DNA of 64,000 nt from an uncultured Gammaproteobacteria bacterium (GCA_964653195.1 CAZZCX010000001.1:35290-99289); one strand, 5' to 3'; numbered from the stretch's first letter, positions 4,517 through 55,531 are shown. Program-made: numbers and translations. The notes: a model not told the origin generated them from the letters alone.

Positions 4517-5659
4517 ATGCCAAAACGGAAAAAGAAACTTTCACAGAAAAAAACTATAGTATTAATTTCGTTGGTATTTGCGTTAATAGGATTTTTGATT
4601 ATTTCAAAATTTTCTGCATACATAAAACCCTTATACGAACTAGCTTTTGAAAAAAAGATAGAACTAAAAAAAACTAACGAAGAAAAGATAAATATACTTT
4701 TATTAGGAATAGGAGGTGGTTCACATGACGGGCCTTTGCTTACGGATACTATTATGTTTGCCAGTATAGACCCCTTGAAACTATCTGTAAACTTAATATC
4801 GATTCCAAGAGATTTATGGATTGATGAAGTTAAAGATAAAGTTAATAAAGTTTATGTTTATAGCGAGGTTAAGAAAAAAAGTTCCGGATTACTTGAAACA
4901 AAAAGAGTAGTAAGTAAAGTAGTTGGTCAAAGAATTGATTATGGTTTTCTAATTGATTTCACCGGTTTTATAAAGGCAGTTGATATTATAGGAGGAATTA
5001 ATGTAAAAGTAGAAAGATCATTTGATGATTATGCCTATCCAGTTGCTGGCAAAGAAAATGATCTTTGCGGTTTTGAAGAAGAGTCAATAGCAAGCTTTTC
5101 TGCTCAAATCGCAACCGGGAGCGCTACCGATTTTGATATATTTCCTTGCCGCTTTGAGCATTTAAAATTTGAGAAAGGGGAACAGCATATGGATGGCATA
5201 ACAGCATTAAAATTTGTGAGATCACGGCATGCGCTCGGTCCTGAAGGTACAGACTTTGCTAGGAGTATGCGTCAGGAAAAAGTGATAAAAGCAGTAAAAG
5301 AGAAAGTATTTTCAGCGGGAATACTCCTAAATCCCGTGAGAATATTTAGTCTATATGATGTAATCAAAGATAGTATAGATACAGATATAAAAGAGGAAGA
5401 AATTGATGATTTCATAAAGCTTGCACAAAAAATGAAGAATTCAGAAATTCACAGTACAGTATTAGATGTGAGTGAAGATGACCGCGAAATACCAGCATTG
5501 CTGTGGAATCCACCTATTTCAGATGAGTATAATTATCAATGGGTTATAATTCCTAAAAAAGGAAAAAGTGATTACTCAGAAGTCCATACATACATAATGT
5601 GTATTATAAAATATAATGGCTGCTCAGCTACTCCCACCTATTCCACATCGATTAACTGA
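4517..5659 (+). CDS. LytR-CpsA-Psr (LCP) family cell-wall polymer transferase
   Basis: N-terminal TM; LLLGIGGGSHDGPLLTDTIMFASID...SIPRDLWI matches the LCP core. The start is moved to the internal ATG at 4517 (MPKRKKK). Confidence 0.7.
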   Translation: MPKRKKKLSQKKTIVLISLVFALIGFLIISKFSAYIKPLYELAFEKKIELKKTNEEKINILLLGIGGGSHDGPLLTDTIMFASIDPLKLSVNLISIPRDLWIDEVKDKVNKVYVYSEVKKKSSGLLETKRVVSKVVGQRIDYGFLIDFTGFIKAVDIIGGINVKVERSFDDYAYPVAGKENDLCGFEEESIASFSAQIATGSATDFDIFPCRFEHLKFEKGEQHMDGITALKFVRSRHALGPEGTDFARSMRQEKVIKAVKEKVFSAGILLNPVRIFSLYDVIKDSIDTDIKEEEIDDFIKLAQKMKNSEIHSTVLDVSEDDREIPALLWNPPISDEYNYQWVIIPKKGKSDYSEVHTYIMCIIKYNGCSATPTYSTSIN

Positions 5660-5666
5660 TATTTTT

Positions 5667-5694
5667 TTGACAAAACTTGAAAATAAAGTATAAT
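5667..5694 (+). promoter_or_regulatory. near-consensus sigma70-type promoter (TTGACA-16-TATAAT)
   Basis: ttgaca at 5667-5672, a 16-nt spacer, tataat at 5689-5694. This implies the downstream ORF really starts at the internal ATG 5722. Confidence 0.4.
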
Positions 5695-5721
5695 CGGCAT
5701 GATAATAAACTATTTATTATT

Positions 5722-6231
5722 ATGTTTGCGGATGTATTGAAAAGATCAGGAATATTATATTTTGTTATTCAGCAAACAATTGTGCCTGTATATTTTCCTG
5801 TACCTTTAGAAATTGAAGTTATCACCAGTTTACAAACACCAAATCTAGAGAAACTACCAGATATCAAAAACCACAAGGTCAAGTACAGTTATCCTATTTA
5901 TGAAAAGTTATTAGATGAGGAGGTATTTGACAACGCTGACAATACAGCAGGTGATAGAATAGACGATACTGTTAAAACAAATACATGTGATAGTTGTTCA
6001 TATCCATCTATCAGTCATCTGTCTACATTGGAACCGGTGGATGAAAATAAAAGTGCGTACGAAAAGCCAAAATCTGTTTTATCCTCATTGCCAACTGCAG
6101 ATTTAGTTCTGCCTACACCAGTGATCGTCGTAGAGCCTCCTGTAGATCCGTTTGGGTCAGTTAATCCAGGTTGTGGATGTGGCATGGTTTCAGAGAAGGG
6201 TATGGAGACAATCTGTCTTTGCCTCGAGTAG
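5722..6231 (+). CDS. hypothetical protein with a hydrophobic N-terminus and Cys-rich C-terminus
   Basis: The ORF-track start (5677) lies upstream of the predicted TSS. The C-terminus reads ...NPGCGCGMVSEKGMETICLCLE. No family recognised. Confidence 0.3.
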   Translation: MFADVLKRSGILYFVIQQTIVPVYFPVPLEIEVITSLQTPNLEKLPDIKNHKVKYSYPIYEKLLDEEVFDNADNTAGDRIDDTVKTNTCDSCSYPSISHLSTLEPVDENKSAYEKPKSVLSSLPTADLVLPTPVIVVEPPVDPFGSVNPGCGCGMVSEKGMETICLCLE

Positions 6232-6249
6232 CTTATTATTGATAGATAG

Positions 6250-8727
6250 TCACTTATGGATTTTTAAGATAAATGTATCTTCAGACTTGAAAACTGTCTT
6301 TCCAATGCTTTGAAGCTTCGATTCTTTTAGTAATGGATATTTCTCTCGCTCTAACCTTCCAATTATTACATAAGAGATATTGTATTTTTGTAATAATTCT
6401 TTAGTAATTAGTAAATCTTCAGATTCGTATATTTGCCTTATGTCATCAGTTCTTGAGTTTGGGGCATCTTGTCCTCTCCACAACCATTGGTGGACATACC
6501 ATCCAAGTACAGTTGGTAAGCCTGTATTTGCAGAAAATCTTTCGTAATCTGTATAAGAATCACCTTGCGCTTCAAGAATTACTGGCTGGTTTTTGAGATT
6601 ATTCAACCATAGATATGCTTCATAATCCCCGCTGGAACGGTTCTTTAAATATTTTACTCCATCTAATCCGACATACGTTTTAAGTCCATTGTAATAAGAA
6701 ATTACGGCAAAGTAAGGGTATACCAGTACAAGAGAAATAAGTGTAGCCGAAAGAAATACATAAGCCAAGTAAAGAGGTTTTATGGGTATTGGAAGTAATC
6801 TCAAATTATACTTTGAAGAAGTCCGTGTGATAACATATCCACTTACTATAGACAACATAATAAATGCCTGAAAAACTAATTTAAACATAGTATTTGCTCT
6901 GTAATGATCAGGATATATATCTTTCATATATATAAATTCAGGAATAATTATTAAAAATGTCGAGATAATTATCAGTAAAAGGATGAATTTATCAGTCTTT
7001 TTTAAAGGTTTATTTTTTAAGAAAAAGACTAGAAAAGTAAAAATAAAAAAATAAAAGAAACCATATAAAGTCAAAAGTTGCCATAGAGGTGATCTTAGGC
7101 AATGATCTGGTTCAAATAGTAAAGGTCCGATCTTTCTGCTTGTATACTTTGTGGTAACTTTTTGTGAATCTTTTGTATTCATCAGAGATAAGCAGTGATC
7201 CGGAACAAAAATCTTTTTTATAAGATTTCTATTATCTATGCCATATGTTTTTCCGGACATATCAACAGTTTCTTGAGTTAGAAATATTGAAGGAGCGCCT
7301 ACTACACCTATTCCGCCTACAAGTTTTGATGCATCAAAATTAAAAGAAAATGGGCGAGAAAAAAGGAAAAAAGTAAATAGAAGAATTGATAATTGGACTA
7401 GTAAGCCTATACCAAAATTTACAATCGGTTTCTTTAACTGAGATGATAGTCCATTGCCCCAATTTATTTTTAATGATAATTCATCTTTTGTTTGTTTTGT
7501 GACGTATTCTTCACTTGTCTTTCTAAAGACTCGATTATAGTGATAATAAAATAATACTAATGCAGTAAGTAGTAAATAAGTTAAGCCGTCCCATGCGTTT
7601 GTCATATACATGCTGGAGAGAAGAAAACTTATAAACACTAAACCGCTTACTATTGGTTTCATTCTACTTTTTGGGTCAGTAAAAAATATTACAAAGATTG
7701 TCGATATGGTGAGCAGTACTATCGGTATATCAGCAACATGCCCATGAAGATCAGCTACTACCCAGGAGTATATAGGAAATTCATGTATAGTATTGTGAAT
7801 AAATCTGGTTGCATTGGGATACCAGTAGTTATTTGGGACTGCCGTCAACTTTTTCTTATCAACTTCATTGCAATAAACTATTTCCTTGCTACCACTTGTG
7901 CTAATTTTTTCATACGAATCCTTACCGTAGCAAGGATTAACAAGAGACAATTCTAAATTCCAAATAGGCATTGGTTTCTCTACGTCATATGGCTTGAAGA
8001 ATATATATAAAATATGTAGATTACCAGATAGGCTAACCAAGCTGGCTGTTATAAGACCACCAACTATAATTCTAAAGATTTGCTTCTCAATTTTATTAAA
8101 AGATCGGGCTATGAGTGTTATTCCTAAAGAAAAAGACTCTAAAAAACATAATGCGAACAGTGTTGCGATCATTAAGTTGTAGGTAATAAAAGATGGTATT
8201 CCTGATGCCTTTGTGAGGACAGCAGTTATGAAATGACCGAAATAGTAATAATTTATAGGTAGTCCGGAATACCACATATCAACTGGAGGGAAATAAGTTG
8301 AGCGGAGTATAGAGTTTACAAAACCAAAATCCATATATTTCTCCAGGCCATAAATTTCAGGATTGAATGCGCGAACATAAGACCATGAGAGAAGACAAAG
8401 AAAGAAAATACATTCTTCGAATATAAAAAGAAAAATTCTTTTATGATTCAATAATGATTTATAACTTTTGCCTTTCCAAACGAGAATTGGAATTATTGTA
8501 AAAGTAAATATCAAATAAATCGAATAATTTGTAAACGGGGTTATTTTAAATATACCTAAGACAAAAACCAAATAGCTTATTATTAGTATTCCAAGAATCT
8601 TTGAGAACCCATAGCCCTTATCTAAAAATGAAGAAAAAATTATACCTGCTAAGGGCAAGAATACAATTCCTGATATAAAAAAAATAATCCACCAGCGAAA
8701 AACATACATGAGATCGTGTATTGGCAT
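6250..8727 (-). CDS. large polytopic membrane protein, possible GT-C-like glycosyltransferase (DUF2298-like)
   Basis: 825 aa, many predicted TM helices at both ends with a central soluble region. Sits in the glycosylation cluster. Confidence 0.35.
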   Translation of the reverse strand: MPIHDLMYVFRWWIIFFISGIVFLPLAGIIFSSFLDKGYGFSKILGILIISYLVFVLGIFKITPFTNYSIYLIFTFTIIPILVWKGKSYKSLLNHKRIFLFIFEECIFFLCLLSWSYVRAFNPEIYGLEKYMDFGFVNSILRSTYFPPVDMWYSGLPINYYYFGHFITAVLTKASGIPSFITYNLMIATLFALCFLESFSLGITLIARSFNKIEKQIFRIIVGGLITASLVSLSGNLHILYIFFKPYDVEKPMPIWNLELSLVNPCYGKDSYEKISTSGSKEIVYCNEVDKKKLTAVPNNYWYPNATRFIHNTIHEFPIYSWVVADLHGHVADIPIVLLTISTIFVIFFTDPKSRMKPIVSGLVFISFLLSSMYMTNAWDGLTYLLLTALVLFYYHYNRVFRKTSEEYVTKQTKDELSLKINWGNGLSSQLKKPIVNFGIGLLVQLSILLFTFFLFSRPFSFNFDASKLVGGIGVVGAPSIFLTQETVDMSGKTYGIDNRNLIKKIFVPDHCLSLMNTKDSQKVTTKYTSRKIGPLLFEPDHCLRSPLWQLLTLYGFFYFFIFTFLVFFLKNKPLKKTDKFILLLIIISTFLIIIPEFIYMKDIYPDHYRANTMFKLVFQAFIMLSIVSGYVITRTSSKYNLRLLPIPIKPLYLAYVFLSATLISLVLVYPYFAVISYYNGLKTYVGLDGVKYLKNRSSGDYEAYLWLNNLKNQPVILEAQGDSYTDYERFSANTGLPTVLGWYVHQWLWRGQDAPNSRTDDIRQIYESEDLLITKELLQKYNISYVIIGRLEREKYPLLKESKLQSIGKTVFKSEDTFILKIHK

Positions 8728-49082: not shown

Positions 49083-49430
49083 TTATTCTCTATTTAGCGA
49101 TTTTATCAAACTATGTAATTCTTTACTAATAGAGTCACATTTTAACAGAGCTTTGGAAACATCCACCACAAAAAGTTGTTCCGCAATTTTAAGAGCTGCA
49201 ATTGTCTCATATAAAGATTTCAACGCATTGCGTAAATAACTTTTGTATTCCTTATCACCTAAGCCACCGCTACCTTCTGCAATATTTAATACCACTGAAA
49301 TAGCAGATCTTTTTAGCTGATCAATTAGTGCAAATTTTTCATCGCTTGGTAGTTCGATCGTAATTTTATATATAGTTTTCACCAATTCAACTGCATTTTG
49401 ATATACACGAAGTTTCTCAAATCTATACAT
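49083..49430 (-). CDS. four-helix-bundle protein (family typical of 23S rRNA intervening sequences)
   Basis: MYRFEKLRVYQNAVELVKTIYKIT...LPSDEKFALIDQLKRSAISV..NIAEG. Confidence 0.6.
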   Translation of the reverse strand: MYRFEKLRVYQNAVELVKTIYKITIELPSDEKFALIDQLKRSAISVVLNIAEGSGGLGDKEYKSYLRNALKSLYETIAALKIAEQLFVVDVSKALLKCDSISKELHSLIKSLNRE

Positions 49431-49580: not shown

Positions 49581-50684
49581 ATGGCAAGAGCATCCGCTAA
49601 CCCCCCCAAAAACATTCCACAACCTTCATCAGATCAAGATGCAAAATTAGAATCAGTCCGAATCGCGATGGATCAGATTGAGAAGCAGTATGGTCGAGGA
49701 AGTATTATGCGTTTCGGAGAAGCAGCCCAAAAGCTCGATATCTCAGTTATTTCTACGGGATGCTTACCGCTAGATATGGCACTTGGCGTGGGTGGGCTTC
49801 CACGAGGAAGAATAATTGAAATATATGGACCGGAAGCTTCAGGAAAAACTACAGTTTGTCTATCAACTATCGCACAAGCGCAGAAACATGGCGGCATAGC
49901 AGCATTTATTGACGCAGAACACGCGCTTGATCCATTATGGGCTGAAAGACTGGGTGTAAAACTAGATGAGCTTCTTATTTCTCAACCTGATACAGGAGAA
50001 CAGGCGTTGGAAATCACAGAAAGTCTTATAAGAAGTGGAGGAGTAGATGTCCTAGTCATCGATTCTGTGGCAGCTTTGGTACCGAGAGCTGAGATAGAGG
50101 GAGATATGGGTGATTCATCTATGGGACTTCAGGCTAGACTTATGTCTCAAGCTCTTCGTAAGCTGACTGGAGTTATATCGAAATCAAAAACAGTTTGCAT
50201 ATTCACCAATCAGCTGCGCCAAAAAATCGGGGTGATGTTTGGTAACCCCGAGACAACTACAGGCGGATTGGCACTTAAGTTCTATGCATCTATAAGGATG
50301 GATATCCGTAAAATTGAGACTCTAAAAGATAGCGATAAAGTAATTGGCTCAAGGCATAGAGTGAAGGTTGTAAAGAATAAAGTAGCTGTACCATTCCGTC
50401 TTGCAGAATTTGATGTCTTTGGTGACGGCATCTCAAGAGAAGGGGGGATTCTGGATGTGGCTGTTGAGATGAATGTAATCTCTAAATCAGGCGCTTTCTT
50501 CCGTTATAATGATCAAATGATAGGCCAAGGAAAAGTAGCTGCTATGGAGTGGCTGAAGGAGAATTCCGATATTGCAAAGAAGATAGTAGCTGAAATTATG
50601 TTGCGATCAAAAAACGGCGGTTTACCTGTGGCAGTAGGGGTAGAATCAGGAAAAGTAGACACGAAAGCTTCCCTTGATGAGTAA
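49581..50684 (+). CDS. recA: recombinase RecA
   Basis: GPEASGKTT Walker A; L1/L2 loops. The internal ATG 49581 (MARASANPP) is used as the start. Confidence 0.95.
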
Positions 50685-50695
50685 AGTCCTCTTTT

Positions 50696-51181
50696 ATGGA
50701 ACCTGCCGATCTTTACAGAAAGTATCTTGATAGAGCTCTTCATTTCCTCTCTTTTCGTTCCCGCTCTGAGAAAGAAGTAAGGGATAATCTATTAAAAAAG
50801 GATGCATCCAATGAAACGATTGAACAGATAATAAGTTGGTTAAAGGATCATAATTTTCTTGATGACAAAGATTTTGCTAGGAGATTTATAGAACAGCGTA
50901 TAAAGCTTCGTCCTAGGGGGATGAGAGTCATAAAGATGGAGTTAAAGCAGAAGGGAATAAGTCAGGAAATAATAGAAGAGATAACTGCAGAAAATGAAGG
51001 AGAAGTGGATAATGAGTTTGCAATGGCAAAAAGAATTGTTGAAAAAAAGATCATGAAATACAAAGGATTCGAGAAAAGAGTGATATACCAAAAACTTGGA
51101 GCCCATCTTGCTAGCAAAGGATTTAATTGGGATATCATAAAACGAAGCATAGACGAGTATTTATCTAATGTGAACTTCTGA
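50696..51181 (+). CDS. recX: RecA regulator RecX
   Basis: Three-helix repeat pattern (LSFRSRSEKEVRDNLLKK...); position after recA. Confidence 0.75.
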   Translation: MEPADLYRKYLDRALHFLSFRSRSEKEVRDNLLKKDASNETIEQIISWLKDHNFLDDKDFARRFIEQRIKLRPRGMRVIKMELKQKGISQEIIEEITAENEGEVDNEFAMAKRIVEKKIMKYKGFEKRVIYQKLGAHLASKGFNWDIIKRSIDEYLSNVNF

Positions 51182-51194
51182 CATCACATCGTTA

Positions 51195-52085
51195 CTATCG
51201 TGGTTGAAAATGTCTTAGCGCATGACCTGCGTCGCCCACTACATATGGGTCAGTTAAGTAATAACTTTCACTCATTGTATCTGAAGCGCCTAAAGCATAA
51301 AAAATTGAATCTATTCCCATTTCTTCAAGGGCTTTTCTCATATTAGGTATTCCTTGTCTTGTGGCAATAATTGATCGATGAATCAATCTTGCGGGAGTGA
51401 TTCCTTGAAAATGAGCTGCGACAGCAACCGCAGCTGTTGATGCGCCTGATGCAGGGTTCACAAAGTCCGCCACTTCTATAGTCTTCCCTTTGAGTTCGGG
51501 GACTTGCTGTGGGTTTTTCCATTCTACAGTTACCATAAGATCTGTATTCTGCCCCACTTTAGGATGCTGTCTTTTGGTAACCACTTTTATTTCATCAGAT
51601 ATTTCTGCGTCGGGTTCCACCCCATGCGCTAAGCGTGTAGTAACTAGACCAGCTCTTACTAAAGATAACGGTCTACCTCGTCTAGCGTTAGGTAAAAGCG
51701 TATCAATTAATTCATAACCCACTTTTGCCAATTCATAATATTCTCTACAAAATCCTTTATCATCGTAGAGACGAGGATCTGCTACGAGTCTTCTGGCATG
51801 TGAATCAATTCTTCCGACCAAAAGCGCAGCGTCTTTATAGTGATCTGCGAGAACCACCACTCCCCTTTCGGGAAGTCGATCGCGATCATCCCAAAAATCT
51901 CCTTCGTATCTGCCAATAAGGGGAACGAATGCCTGGCCGAAATTAACCAGGGCATGTACATCTGGATTATCACCAGCTTCTAAAAAGTCTTGTGGGTTTC
52001 TTAATTCACCGAGAATATTGATTCTTTCCCCATGGTGAGCAGAAGTAACTCTAATCTCTGAACCACCAAAAATGTAAGCTTGCAT
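51195..52085 (-). CDS. uracil-phosphoribosyltransferase-family PRTase with an approximately 110-aa N-terminal extension
   Basis: SLVRAGL (UPRT LRAGLGM), KTIEVADFVNPASGAST (PRPP loop, compare DPMLATGGS), C-terminal YVVGDAGHALRHF (compare IIPGLGDAGDKIFG). Confidence 0.55.
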   Translation of the reverse strand: MQAYIFGGSEIRVTSAHHGERINILGELRNPQDFLEAGDNPDVHALVNFGQAFVPLIGRYEGDFWDDRDRLPERGVVVLADHYKDAALLVGRIDSHARRLVADPRLYDDKGFCREYYELAKVGYELIDTLLPNARRGRPLSLVRAGLVTTRLAHGVEPDAEISDEIKVVTKRQHPKVGQNTDLMVTVEWKNPQQVPELKGKTIEVADFVNPASGASTAAVAVAAHFQGITPARLIHRSIIATRQGIPNMRKALEEMGIDSIFYALGASDTMSESYYLTDPYVVGDAGHALRHFQPR

Positions 52086-52505
52086 TCTTTTTCGGTTATA
52101 GCCTTGGATGGATGAAGGTTTAGTACATGGTCGGTTCCTAATCTTCTTCCCTCTTCAATTAATTGACCCATAATTTTATTTCATCGCATTATACTCTTAA
52201 AATTATAAATTGCAATTACTGTTGTGCAAACCACGGAAAGTGATTTGGAGATGGCTCATAAGAAATGTGGAGAGTAAGATTATGAATTTAAATTCTCTAC
52301 TTGTATATATTTAGCAAACATGAATCATTGTTTGCTAATATGGCAGCTTTTTGATTTTTATAATACATACATTAAATCTAGTGAAGTTGATGATAGGTGC
52401 AAAGATAATCCCGCGATAGATTTCTTAGTCTGTTCAGAATTTTAAGCATGGACAATTCAAATTTAAAATGTACTAATAGACTGTGAGGCTGATCTTAGAT
52501 AGTAG

Positions 52506-54029
52506 TTAAATGCCGTTTCCGAGGTTATTTAAAACTATTGAGGCAACCTCAGAATCTGTTATGAGATTGATTCCGTATTTAACTGCAGCTTTTCGTATTA
52601 ACTTGCCGTCAGTAAATTCTTTACTCACCTTAACTGTTTCACGTGTTGGGATATTAATTATCAAATCAAATATTTGCCTTGTAACTAAATCTAAAATATT
52701 GGGCGATTCTCCGATTTGGGATACTTTATATACTAGAGAAGAATTGAGATTATTTTGCATTAAAAATTTATTTGTATTTTCAGTAGTGTAGAGAATCACA
52801 TCTTTATTTCTTACAGCATTTTTGATATATGGCAATAAATATTTTTTATTTTCACTTTTGCCGATACTTAATAGAACATGTTTCTTTTTGCCGGATATCA
52901 ATGCTTGTTTTCCGTATCTATTAGAGTCCCAGTCATGAGTTTGTAAGTTTAAAAGCGAAAATACTGACACATTTCTGATGTTTGATTCAGCAAAAACATA
53001 CTGCAAAACCCTTTCATTGCCTATGCCGTAACCTGCATGAGGATTAGTCAGTTTATTCTTCATAATATTCAAATACCATGCGAAATCTTCATAGCTTCCG
53101 CCTCTTTGCTGATGGAGTTTAAACATAGTTGATGAAAGAAGTCTCTCATTGAGCTTTTCGAAATCATGTTCGCGTACCGCTGATCCTGCACCTTCACCTG
53201 CATATGGAAAAATTAAATCGGCAGATAACGCCAGTCGATCATCTTTCGTCCATACTTTCATGTTGAAGAATTTTATTTCTTTAGGGTATTTCATAATAAA
53301 TACCGGCAGTTCCTGCTTGGGTCCGTTAAGCAAAGATACTACTTTGGCTTCATGCTCTGCTTTTAAATCGTCACCGAATTTCACTTGCGGAAATCCGTGT
53401 TTATTTAAGAGTTTCACCGCGTCTTCATAAGTAATACGAAGAAAATCTTTTCTTAAAACCTCTTTTAATCTCTCTGTATTTCTATTGTAGGTTTTCTTTA
53501 ATATTTCATGGTTGTCTTTTATTATTTGCGCAATCATTGACCGAACAGTTTCTTGAATACTTTCAAGAAGAGCTTCATACATTTGGTTTTCATCGTAATT
53601 TTCGCGAGTCATTGAAAGAAGAGTACTGTCAAACTCTTCTTCAGTTAGACGAAACTGTCTAAGATGCCTGTCATCTTCCTCTTCTTCGTCGCGGCCTGAA
53701 TGAATTACCGTATGTACAGCATGAAAGGACTGAAGGGCTTGTTCAAGCGAAAGCTGCCCGGTTTGAGTAAGAAAAAGAGGAAGATCTAGTCGGTTGCCTA
53801 TTTTAAAAAGCGTATCTACATTTTCACATGCACCTGTTATGCCCACAACTTCAGGAACATCTACATATACTCTTTCTCTTTTTTGATAACTTTCGCGTGC
53901 TCCGTTGTTTAAGCTTTGGTTAACGGAAACTAAATTAGAAAAGTGCTCTGAATAAGGTAAAGTTATTTTATTTTCTGATATTGTAAGTTTTACTGGTTTC
54001 ATATTTTTTTGCCAAAAAAAAAGAGCCAT
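52506..54029 (-). CDS. AsnRS-type class-II aaRS catalytic core (AsnA / AS-AR-like, no anticodon-binding domain) fused to a C-terminal MGS-like domain
   Basis: Blocks aligning to the AsnS catalytic domain: ITYEDAVKLL, FGDDLKAEHE, PVFIMKYPKEIKFFNMK, DLIFPYAGEGAGSAVREHDFEKLNERL, NPHAGYGIGNERVLQYVF (motif 3). The C-terminal approximately 130 aa resembles the CarB/PurH MGS-like fold (HVLLSIGKSENKKYLLPYIKNAVRNKDVILYTTENTNKFL...). Translation may begin at the second ATG (54002). Confidence 0.6.
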   Translation of the reverse strand: MALFFWQKNMKPVKLTISENKITLPYSEHFSNLVSVNQSLNNGARESYQKRERVYVDVPEVVGITGACENVDTLFKIGNRLDLPLFLTQTGQLSLEQALQSFHAVHTVIHSGRDEEEEDDRHLRQFRLTEEEFDSTLLSMTRENYDENQMYEALLESIQETVRSMIAQIIKDNHEILKKTYNRNTERLKEVLRKDFLRITYEDAVKLLNKHGFPQVKFGDDLKAEHEAKVVSLLNGPKQELPVFIMKYPKEIKFFNMKVWTKDDRLALSADLIFPYAGEGAGSAVREHDFEKLNERLLSSTMFKLHQQRGGSYEDFAWYLNIMKNKLTNPHAGYGIGNERVLQYVFAESNIRNVSVFSLLNLQTHDWDSNRYGKQALISGKKKHVLLSIGKSENKKYLLPYIKNAVRNKDVILYTTENTNKFLMQNNLNSSLVYKVSQIGESPNILDLVTRQIFDLIINIPTRETVKVSKEFTDGKLIRKAAVKYGINLITDSEVASIVLNNLGNGI

Positions 54030-54037
54030 CCGGCTCT
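54011..54037 (-). terminator. GC-rich hairpin (AGAGCC-GGAU-GGCUCU) followed by U9, on the minus strand, overlapping the annotated start codon of the AsnRS-like gene
   Basis: Read on the minus strand: agagccggatggctct + ttttttttt. The 54029 ATG sits in the loop or stem. Confidence 0.4.
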
Positions 54038-54114
54038 TTGTTAAAGACTATAACAGTTGAGTATTATCTTAATATTTCTAATCATTCAAAAAATAATAAA
54101 ACAATTTTTAATAC

Positions 54115-54144
54115 TTGTCAACTAGCAAATGTTTGGAGTATAAT
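54115..54144 (+). promoter_or_regulatory. sigma70-type promoter for rny (TTGTCA-18-TATAAT), overlapping a minus-strand TTGACA-17-TATTAT element
   Basis: ttgtca at 54115-54120 and tataat at 54139-54144. The reverse complement of the same region carries TTGACA...TATTAT pointing at the AsnRS-like gene. Confidence 0.35.
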
Positions 54145-54253
54145 TACATTTGGAAAGCAACAGATTATGTGTTTTATGAATAGGACACAGAAACTTATTA
54201 TTATTAAAACTGTTTTAATTTAGTCGTTTCTTCTTCTGTTGCCTCAATTATTT

Positions 54254-55531
54254 ATGGCCGATACTAATACTCATCAGGATCTAATACTCCTTGAAAAAAA
54301 ACTACTTGAACGACAAGAGAAACTTGAAGAAAAACAGGAGTATATAAAAAAACTTCAGGATTCACTTGAAAAAAAATCTACAGAATATACTGAGAAACTT
54401 GAAAAAATCGCATCTTTAACTCGTGATGAGGCTAAAGAAGAGTTACTAAGAGAGGTTGAAAACAAGTCATCAGCTATGGTTGCGCGAATTATTAAAGAAA
54501 AAGAAGAAGAAGCAAAAGCTACAGCTTCAATTAAGGCACAGGAGATAATTTTAGAAAGTATCAGGCACGGAGCTTTGGATTTTATTCCAGAATATACTGT
54601 TTCTATTGTTAAGGTTGAGGATGAAGAGCTTAAAGGAAGAATCATCGGAAAGGAAGGGCGAAACATTAGAGCGTTTGAGCAGTCAACAGGTGTAGATGTG
54701 GATCTTGATGAAGAACACATAATAAGACTCTCTTCGTTTGACTCAGTTAGGCGTGAGATTGCGAGAAGAGCACTTGAAAAATTACTTAGAGATACAAGAA
54801 TTCAGCCTTTTAGAATAGAGGAAGTTGTTGAGCAGACAAGAGCAGAAGTTGACAAGATAATGTTTGATGAAGGTCAAAAACTTGCAATCGAAGCAGGTGT
54901 TTATAATATTCCTACCGATCTTTATACAATACTGGGAAGATTTAAATTCCGCACCTCTTATGGCCAGAATTTAATAGTTCATTCTTTAGAGACCACAAAA
55001 ATAGGTATACATCTAGCAGAAGAGCTTGGGGCAGATGTAAATATTGTAAAACTAAGTTGTCTATTTCATGATATCGGTAAAGTGATGGAGGGGGAAGGAA
55101 GTCATGTAAAGTTAGGAGTAGATTTAATAAAACGGCACAACTTTCCTCAGGAAGTTATAAATTGTATAGCGGAACATCATGAAGATAAACCTTTTTCGAG
55201 CATTGAATCAATAATTGTGTCAACCGCAGATAAAATATCAGGCATGAGGCCAGGTGCAAGATATGAAGATATAGAGAATTATGGAAAAAGACTTACTGAA
55301 ATGGAGAGTCTTGCAAGAAAATACGAAGGGGTAGAGGATGCGTATGCTTTTGAAGCTGGTCGGGAGCTGAGAGTTATAATTGATCCTGGGCTTATGGATG
55401 ATAATCAGACCATTATACTCTCCCGAAAGATTCAAGAAGAAATCGCGCAAACACTTGCGATACCTGGTGAAGTTAAAGTAACAGCAATACGTGAATTTCG
55501 TTCTGTTTATCCAGATAGACAAGTTTCGTAA
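54254..55531 (+). CDS. rny: ribonuclease Y (KH + HD domains; no N-terminal TM)
   Basis: KH domain: IIGKEGRNIRAFEQSTGVDV. HD domain: H...HDIGK...D. The ORF-track start is a TTG; the first ATG (54254) is used. Confidence 0.8.
   Translation: MADTNTHQDLILLEKKLLERQEKLEEKQEYIKKLQDSLEKKSTEYTEKLEKIASLTRDEAKEELLREVENKSSAMVARIIKEKEEEAKATASIKAQEIILESIRHGALDFIPEYTVSIVKVEDEELKGRIIGKEGRNIRAFEQSTGVDVDLDEEHIIRLSSFDSVRREIARRALEKLLRDTRIQPFRIEEVVEQTRAEVDKIMFDEGQKLAIEAGVYNIPTDLYTILGRFKFRTSYGQNLIVHSLETTKIGIHLAEELGADVNIVKLSCLFHDIGKVMEGEGSHVKLGVDLIKRHNFPQEVINCIAEHHEDKPFSSIESIIVSTADKISGMRPGARYEDIENYGKRLTEMESLARKYEGVEDAYAFEAGRELRVIIDPGLMDDNQTIILSRKIQEEIAQTLAIPGEVKVTAIREFRSVYPDRQVS

Follow-up and report, generated by a model that had tools for sequence, protein, structure and literature searches.

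The 64,000-nt stretch of DNA analyzed here (hereafter, the window) comes from an uncultured Gammaproteobacteria bacterium (GCA_964653195.1 CAZZCX010000001.1:35290-99289), and carries on its minus strand a 296-codon gene with an ATG start at positions 51195-52085, exactly the open reading frame (ORF) that had been delineated in an initial, sequence-only reading of the same DNA. The product of this gene (hereafter, the target) is a previously undescribed, lineage-specific variant of uracil phosphoribosyltransferase (UPRTase), which lies outside PF14681 and TIGR01091. We consider it probable that the target is a uracil-salvage enzyme, which would convert uracil and 5-phosphoribosyl pyrophosphate (PRPP) to uridine monophosphate (UMP) and pyrophosphate (PPi). 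Uracil is favored as the base because the gene is fused or adjacent to udp in some relatives, and because it is found between pyrF and prs.

Fold and active-site residues

The AlphaFold2 model of the target has a predicted local distance difference test score of 95.2, and the top 13 matches returned by Foldseek for this model are all UPRTases (E values of 4e-7 to 7e-6; template modeling scores of 0.60-0.68, normalized by target in the Foldseek sense). The model contains a type I phosphoribosyltransferase (PRTase) core, a hood and N-terminal helices, which together are the hallmark of the UPRTase type of fold. The original assignment of the gene to the UPRTase-type PRTases, which had been made from short motifs, therefore holds for the fold as well as for the active-site residues.

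At the level of sequence the relationship is distant. The window protein has no match among Pfam, NCBIfam and PADLOC models even at E≤1, does not reach the curated cut-offs of PF14681 and TIGR01091, and gives only noise when used as a single sequence to search the PDB. With a profile of the family, a UPRTase in the PDB is matched at E 0.84, and profile alignments to four canonical Upps with hhalign are marginal (probability 43-46%, E 2e-4). In the hmmsearch and hhalign comparisons, the family motifs pair with canonical R78, D130, T135-G-G-S138 and D199-A-G201. Canonical Upp has the identifiers EC 2.4.2.9, PF14681 and TIGR01091 (structures 2ehj, 1i5e, 1o5o and 1v9s), and the roles given here for residues of the uracil pocket draw in part on published work (PMC3570474, PMC4536494). 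The four active-site segments, all on the minus strand, are as follows.

51645..51662, minus strand: L142-V-R144-A-G-L147, counterpart of the canonical I-L-R-A-G-L loop by alignment, with invariant residues
51570..51578, minus strand: T170-K171-R172, probable counterpart, by topology, of the flexible-loop Y-R of canonical Upp
51438..51467, minus strand: D207-F-V-N210-P211-A-S213-G-A-S216, a modified PRPP (ribose-5-phosphate) loop, located by hmmsearch and hhalign
51225..51260, minus strand: Y276-L277...V283-G-D285-A-G287, counterpart by alignment of the uracil-binding and catalytic Y-I-x-P-G-L-G-D-A-G

In the first segment, L142, R144 and G146 are invariant among 73 family sequences, and R144 corresponds to E. 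coli R78. The arginine of the canonical loop binds the pyrophosphate of PRPP, and Arg77 and Arg102 of the M. tuberculosis enzyme are implicated in PRPP binding (PMC3570474). T170-K-R172 is likewise invariant in the 73 sequences, and lies where the first strand of a hairpin, formed by strands 166-173 and 183-189, ends. By the topology of its secondary structure, R172 is probably the equivalent of the canonical loop arginine, whereas hhalign, with low confidence, pairs W189-K/R190 with the canonical Y-R instead. Both of the arginines that contact the PRPP pyrophosphate (in the I-L-R-A-G and Y-R-[DN] loops) are thus represented, R144 by alignment and R172 by topology.

Compared with canonical D-P-M-L-A-T-G-G-S, the PRPP loop is longer by one residue; its invariant positions in the same set are D207, V209, N210, P211, A212 and S216, and the S-G-A-S phosphate cradle is conserved as well. 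The two alignment methods disagree about its register, such that either D207 or N210 takes the place of the canonical aspartate, with the spacing off by one residue. In the C-terminal segment, which reads V-G-D285-A-G-H in the window, the residues Y276, L277, V283, D285, A286 and G287 are invariant. This base loop is two residues longer than the canonical one and is without its first conserved glycine; of the two glycines that mark the uracil loop of canonical enzymes, the window protein keeps one (G284) and the family consensus (R-A-V-A-D-A-G) keeps none. The UPRTase signatures named in the sequence-only reading are therefore present, but they are less canonical than was claimed (the first is S-L-V-R144-A-G-L and not LRAGL) and are too weak to be detected by curated models. 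Since the curated hidden Markov model thresholds and the canonical form of the uracil loop both fail, we file the target as a divergent variant.

In the mechanism that we propose, the catalytic activity, the base and the roles of the individual residues are predictions. The target would be an active type I PRTase of the UPRTase structural class, in which PRPP-Mg would be held by R144, by the hairpin arginine R172 and by the modified loop D207...S213-G-A-S216, while a pyrimidine base would be bound under the C-terminal Y276-L277...G-D285-A-G loop. Transfer of the phosphoribosyl group would then give a nucleoside 5'-monophosphate and PPi, the likeliest conversion being that of uracil to UMP.

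The N-terminal region

Upstream of the PRTase core, the protein has two regions that together depart from canonical Upp.

51837..52085, minus strand: residues 1-83, family-specific N-terminal add-on (beta-hairpin, short helix, strand, helix)
51678..51836, minus strand: residues 84-136, three helices before the PRTase core, with the canonical beta-hairpin before the core strand missing

The add-on, of about 80 aa, is found in every full-length member of the family and is without a known fold. Its conserved positions are F34, G39, V43, V47, F49 and L56-I57-G58, and it may be a structural elaboration of the hood/oligomerization region. Residues 84-136 probably match the canonical N-terminal helices plus an insertion. 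An N-terminal extension of about 110 aa had been proposed for the window protein; the extension is real and is a property of the whole family, but the net gain over canonical Upp is only about 65-85 aa.

Family size and distribution

Database searches returned 76 homologues with lengths of 279-350 aa. All of those with a named source are from Patescibacteria (Saccharimonadales and Beckwith-, Roizman- and Kerfeldbacteria), and nearly all are annotated as "hypothetical", while one family member has already been labelled a UPRTase by JGI. When the family profile was run over 1.84 billion representative proteins, it retrieved 69 clusters, all of which are family members or fragments, and none of these matches is a canonical Upp (∼208 aa). 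Because the profile retrieves only its own kind, the family is small, restricted to a lineage and separate in sequence from canonical Upp, inside which it does not fall. We found nothing in the literature on this family.

The gene is under purifying selection, as indicated by a ratio of nonsynonymous to synonymous substitution rates (dN/dS) of 0.17 against a 69%-identical orthologue at locus L049. The latter locus is syntenic with the window (ABC transporter-hup-rny ... recX-recA).

Operon context in relatives

Neighborhoods were compared for 35 species-level GTDB loci, 80 metagenome loci and about a dozen contigs obtained by exact-protein look-up, with retrieved flanks of at most 10 kb per locus (individual loci are cited below by L numbers). 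The dominant arrangement is a pyrimidine operon that ends ...pyrD-pyrE-pyrF-TARGET(-prs), so that the target is usually the last or second-to-last gene. The gene immediately upstream is pyrF in 21-22 of the 30 GTDB loci that are informative and, in the metagenome set, in 42 of 64, the two genes often overlapping by 4 bp. Directly after the target comes prs in 16 of 57 metagenome loci, and also in the majority of loci of the Beckwithbacteria type. The identities of pyrD, pyrF and prs are supported by NCBIfam at the equivalog/subfamily level, while pyrE is slightly under its cut-off and a second PRTase is XPRT-like. Among the remaining arrangements are TARGET-pyrG-purB (L005 and L047), a convergent orientation with folA-thyA-HD-dcd in Roizmanbacteria, and, in Saccharimonadales, a target that is solitary or beside a NUDIX gene, with no de novo pyrimidine genes within the fetched sequence.

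Locus L066 has a co-directional cluster in which the target comes first, followed by an argininosuccinate synthase (ASS) fused to an MGS domain (ASS::MGS), a TRZ/ATZ-type amidohydrolase, a radical-SAM-like protein, a pyrE-like PRTase and a canonical upp. It therefore contains three pyrimidine-type PRTases within 8 kb. In the first 640 kb of related loci no canonical Upp was found, which at first suggested the family as a replacement for Upp; this idea was weakened when the co-resident upp of L066 surfaced in later loci.

Three further features of these neighborhoods were observed. In the JGI contig that encodes homologue P0004, a GTP-cyclohydrolase-II-like gene (6153-6959) overlaps the stop codon of the target gene (5209-6153). 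After it come genes for two EamA transporters, a HAD phosphatase and a LOG-like protein, and then pyrF and pyrE; a GCH-II-like enzyme paired with a UPRTase calls to mind the uracil-catabolic URC1 and URC6 of yeast. LOG-like genes (LDcluster4 / TIGR00725-like) also occur just 5' of pyrF in L037 (6678-7253), L012 (4624-5193), L088 (5932-6189) and others, and this superfamily includes some nucleotide 5'-monophosphate nucleosidases, whose action would oppose that of a PRTase. Finally, a 141-aa retropepsin-like ORF with the motif LVDSGADF lies between pyrF and the target in 12 loci (e.g., L014, 5570-5995).

Link to uridine phosphorylase

The identity of the base is suggested most directly by two loci in which udp is fused in frame to the target gene. 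In both L061 and L068, which represent two strains with 93% nucleotide identity, positions 6173-7888 form one 571-aa ORF with no stop codon between the two parts. The phosphorylase part is bona fide, scoring 288.7 and 293.1 bits against TIGR01718 (cutoff 280.3), and the surrounding island contains salvage genes only (tdk/dNK-tmk-[udp::TARGET]-prs-XPRT-guaA). The target part of the fused ORF still has a Shine-Dalgarno-like AGGAGG and an ATG of its own. At L080, udp is a separate gene (310 bits) that abuts the target, and udp is within the same island in L046 and L072; the window has no udp.

Uridine phosphorylase releases uracil, and Udp is the classical source of uracil for UPRTase. With udp on one side and prs on the other, the target is most simply a uracil phosphoribosyltransferase. 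We know of no natural Udp-UPRTase fusion that has been described. The suggestion in the sequence-only reading that the gene goes beyond plain uracil salvage is not upheld, since the fusion argues for just such salvage.

Comparison with known systems

Canonical Upp is the closest reference. Its R78, loop arginine, D130, T-G-G-S and G-D-A-G all have probable counterparts in the target that are conserved, and the two share a context of pyrimidine metabolism and proximity to prs. They differ in that identity is 15-20%, with the target unrecognized by curated models, and in the extra structure of about 80 aa at the N-terminus, the missing beta-hairpin and the C-terminal motif, which is D-A-G-H-x-L-R-H-F in the target and D-A-G-D-R-x-F-G-T in canonical Upp. 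In L066 the two coexist.

PyrR is an attenuator of pyrimidine operons that has UPRTase activity. Like the target, it has the PRTase fold, is encoded in pyr operons and may be accompanied by an Upp that is separate from it. Proteins of the PyrR type have a PF00156-type fold near that of PyrR/HGPRT, are encoded by the first pyr gene and have an upstream RNA-binding leader motif, and the target does not fit this description. Uridine salvage by Udp followed by Upp is also paralleled, in that the fusion of L061/L068 and the adjacency in L080 place the target right after a bona fide Udp.

In the animal UPRTs (human UPRT and Drosophila Krishah), the PRPP site is kept but the uracil loop is altered, with loss of two conserved glycines (PMC4536494). 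The target resembles these proteins in having the UPRTase fold, a PRPP site that is probably retained and a uracil loop short of the canonical glycines. It differs from them in that the animal proteins are recognizable members of PF14681, in that their loop is shorter and that of the target longer, and in lineage and context, which are unrelated. Since the fly protein still uses 4-thiouracil in vivo, changes in the uracil loop need not abolish activity.

The AsnRS-like/MGS neighbor and variable operon heads

The gene that precedes the target in the window encodes an AsnRS-like protein with an MGS-like domain, and has orthologues at the head of several pyrimidine operons.

52506..54029, minus strand: AsnRS-like/MGS gene, 507 aa (PF00152, 7.9e-30; PF02142, 1.1e-11)
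L004 246-1727, L008 1953-3431 and L010 26-1390: AsnRS-like::MGS orthologues
L037 2101-4694, L047 3237-5858, L049 5384-9722 and L066 2425-6738, and also L069 and L117: ASS::MGS units

The protein has a class II aminoacyl-tRNA synthetase catalytic core of the AsnRS/AsnA type, without an anticodon-binding domain, fused to a C-terminal MGS-like domain, which is the allosteric domain of carbamoyl-phosphate synthetase. It aligns only with positions 129-447 of the asnS model (171.7 bits; cutoff 342.6). Its family has at least 655 homologues in Patescibacteria, compared with 76 for the target, and carries the NCBI name 'amino acid--tRNA ligase-related protein'. The sequence-only reading was correct about the co-orientation of the two window genes and the 420-bp gap between them, but the two-step module that it envisaged is not supported. 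The two are immediate neighbors only in the window and the 98-99%-identical L036, and the ligase gene is usually found alone, as in L051 and L052, where it is solitary among unrelated genes. In eight loci (L004, L008, L010, L059, L060, L062, L085 and L128) the order is AsnRS-like::MGS-pyrD-pyrE-pyrF-TARGET, with a ligase orthologue of 59-65% identity, and in L094 the two are split by one 487-aa radical-SAM-like gene. Because pyrD-pyrE-pyrF intervene in the shared operons, the two window genes are linked by way of the pyrimidine gene cluster. The window locus is a reduced form of this cluster, from which the pyrD, pyrE and pyrF that separate the pair in relatives are absent.

The first gene of Patescibacterial pyr operons is variable, and repeatedly has or accompanies an MGS domain. 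The variants basically fall into four types. In one, CarB fragments::MGS or a free MGS occur with ATCase/OTCase/DHOase (L012-L014, L023, L035 and L046). In two others the head is ASS::MGS, the ASS part of which exceeds the equivalog cut-off of argG. Next comes either a PRK06886 amidohydrolase, which stands in the place of DHOase (L007/L037, L047 and L049), or a TRZ/ATZ amidohydrolase together with a radical-SAM-like protein (about 460 aa; L066, L069 and L117). In the fourth, seen in several loci of the Beckwithbacteria type, AsnRS-like::MGS abuts pyrD, and the operon has no ATCase or DHOase. At L049, the slot of the window's AsnRS-like::MGS gene is filled by ASS::MGS and an amidohydrolase::DHODH fusion. 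These arrangements suggest, from gene content, that the first steps of pyrimidine synthesis may have been replaced non-orthologously by MGS-fused enzymes, and such a route could possibly use citrulline and aspartate without carbamoyl phosphate, all of which is pure inference. Where it is solitary, AsnRS-like::MGS may be no more than an asparagine synthetase of the AsnA type. A literature search for ASS::MGS or AsnRS-like::MGS fusions, or for alternative pyrimidine routes in the candidate phyla radiation (CPR), found nothing relevant.

Alternative explanations

Several observations weigh against the assignment of the target to uracil salvage. No curated UPRTase model picks up the window protein, and 6 of the 73 relatives match PF14681, but weakly (best E 2e-6). 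The PRPP loop is expanded by one residue, and one of the two alignments sets N-P against the D-P of Upp; the base loop is both longer and without the canonical glycines, and loss of the two glycines is the proposed cause for the inactivity of purified human UPRT in vitro (PMC4536494). The upp of L066 (7397-8020, 207 aa) is canonical, scoring 248 bits against TIGR01091 (cutoff 208) and 233 bits against PF14681, and two uracil PRTases side by side in a reduced genome are unexpected. Moreover, canonical Upp is common in Patescibacteria (close relatives of the L066 protein), so that the target family is not simply 'the CPR Upp', and its base preference or its role may differ. One alternative is accordingly a PRTase for a different base, either another pyrimidine or an intermediate of the Patescibacterial pyrimidine clusters, that acts alongside Upp and PyrE. 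This is possible but unlikely. It is consistent with the presence of the target, a PyrE-like PRTase and a bona fide Upp in one cluster, with the modified base loop (PMC4536494), with a small family (69 clusters) tied mainly to de novo pyr operons in a phylum where Upp is widespread, and with the GTP-cyclohydrolase-II-like gene that overlaps the target stop in one contig. However, the fusion or adjacency to uridine phosphorylase points to uracil, orotate is already covered by PyrE and PyrF in most operons, and the contexts yield no candidate for an alternative base. In a joint reading that we think quite unlikely, the target would not be a redundant Upp but a dedicated part of a non-canonical pyrimidine module in which interchangeable aspartate-using, ATP-dependent MGS-fused ligases replace CPSase/ATCase/DHOase; its substrate would be some base or intermediate that is not free uracil, or else it would tie UMP/PRPP levels to these ligases, and in the chemistry of the module citrulline might donate its carbamoyl unit to aspartate with no need for carbamoyl phosphate.

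It is more improbable still that the target is a PyrR-like sensor or regulator built on the UPRTase scaffold, in which binding of UMP/PRPP would control the pyr operon or a partner (an X::MGS ligase, PyrF or Prs) and the N-terminal add-on would be the output domain. Such a role would fit a gene encoded inside pyr operons, as PyrR is, with conserved ligand-binding residues, an X::MGS gene as direct neighbor (window, L036, L066 and L069), and coexistence with canonical Upp in L066, as PyrR coexists with Upp in Bacillus. Yet the target is acidic overall (D+E 13.5%, K+R 11.5%), its place is usually toward the end of the operon and not first, no RNA element was found upstream (Rfam, 50500-54500), and the uridine phosphorylase fusion suits an enzyme better. 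Very little probability attaches to the two-step module of the sequence-only reading, in which the PRTase and the AsnRS-like/MGS ligase would act in sequence to give an aminoacyl- or amido-nucleotide. In the window and L036 the two genes lie next to each other in one orientation, in the nine further loci listed above they belong to one operon, and an ASS::MGS ligase directly adjoins the target in L066 and L069; but all of the shared operons except that of L094 have pyrD-pyrE-pyrF in between, the ligase family outnumbers that of the target roughly tenfold and occurs alone, most target loci have ATCase/DHOase, CarB fragments or nothing in place of the ligase, and the target has promoter-like sites of its own. 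The link between the two is the pyrimidine operon, and there is no support for a dedicated module. To the last proposal, that of a PRTase effector of an anti-phage defense system, we attach almost no credence. PRTase domains do occur in some such systems, and this general precedent is all that speaks for it. There is no PADLOC match at E≤1, every informative neighborhood is one of nucleotide metabolism or housekeeping with no defense island, and the gene has native third-position composition, purifying selection and a vertical-looking synteny with L049. A uracil-salvage enzyme thus remains the reading that we prefer.

The target gene in its window

On its downstream side the target is convergent with recX and recA, and beyond the ligase gene lies rny. 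No other nucleotide-metabolism genes (pyr, prs and so on; 24 query families) were found in the whole window, the sole match being the MGS domain. A 115-aa ORF of the 23S-rRNA-intervening-sequence type (49083-49430, minus strand) adjoins recA, and its counterpart in L036 (6093-6305), which matches PF05635, was called as 70 aa. RNase Y is one 430-aa ORF in the window (54239-55531) and two calls (167 aa and 255 aa) at L049 3825-5096, where the split probably reflects a frameshift or an assembly error in L049.

The GC content of the target gene (0.43) ranks second among the 56 ORFs of the window, after recA. As had been proposed, this follows from an Arg/Gly/Ala/Asp/Pro-rich composition (A 10.1% vs 5.6%, R 8.1 vs 4.3, D 7.4 vs 4.5, G 8.1 vs 5.9, P 5.4 vs 3.8), to which His can be added, with depletion of K, I, S, F and N. 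GC at third codon positions (GC3) is 0.283, near the window median of 0.2545, so the rise in GC stems from amino-acid content and not from foreign codon usage. Recent horizontal transfer as its source was rejected in view of this native GC3.

The 420-bp gap upstream of the gene consists of two parts.

52086..52170, minus strand: 30-codon N-terminal leader, out of frame here and in frame in the L036 relative
52171..52505, no strand assigned: AT-rich spacer (GC 0.30) with two sigma-70-like -35/-10 pairs

The closest relative of the target (P0001, from L036) is 98% identical and has 326 aa, with the leader in frame. The frameshift in the window is due to one A fewer in a homopolymer (A5 at 52088-52092, compared with A6 in L036), which may be a genuine polymorphism or may stem from an error in the assembly. 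The leader, which accounts for 85 bp of the gap, is not conserved across the family. Members of 279 aa begin at the position of M1 in the window (52085), so that the 296-aa product holds the whole conserved protein. The two sigma-70-like pairs are on the minus strand (52230-52202 and 52215-52188), upstream of the ATG of the long form. The gap has no remnants of pyrD, pyrE, pyrF or an amidohydrolase, only the frameshifted leader, and the Rfam scan of 50500-54500 gave one sub-threshold miRNA match, which was treated as chance.

Significance

The genomes of Patescibacteria (CPR) are tiny, and the majority of these bacteria are believed to rely on nucleotides that they scavenge (bioRxiv 10.64898/2026.09.16.751625). 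Since the target family is invisible to Pfam and NCBIfam, and its members are mostly labelled "hypothetical", metabolic reconstructions miss a conserved gene of the pyrimidine pathway. With its altered PRPP and base loops and new N-terminal subdomain, the family illustrates the extent to which the UPRTase fold can drift while its catalytic residues are kept. The survey of neighborhoods also exposed the unusual MGS-fused first-step enzymes, which may be a carbamoyl-phosphate-independent entry to pyrimidines. If the UPRTase activity is real, it would tell whether labelling and selection with 4-thiouracil or 5-fluorouracil are feasible in Patescibacteria, which are difficult bacteria to study.

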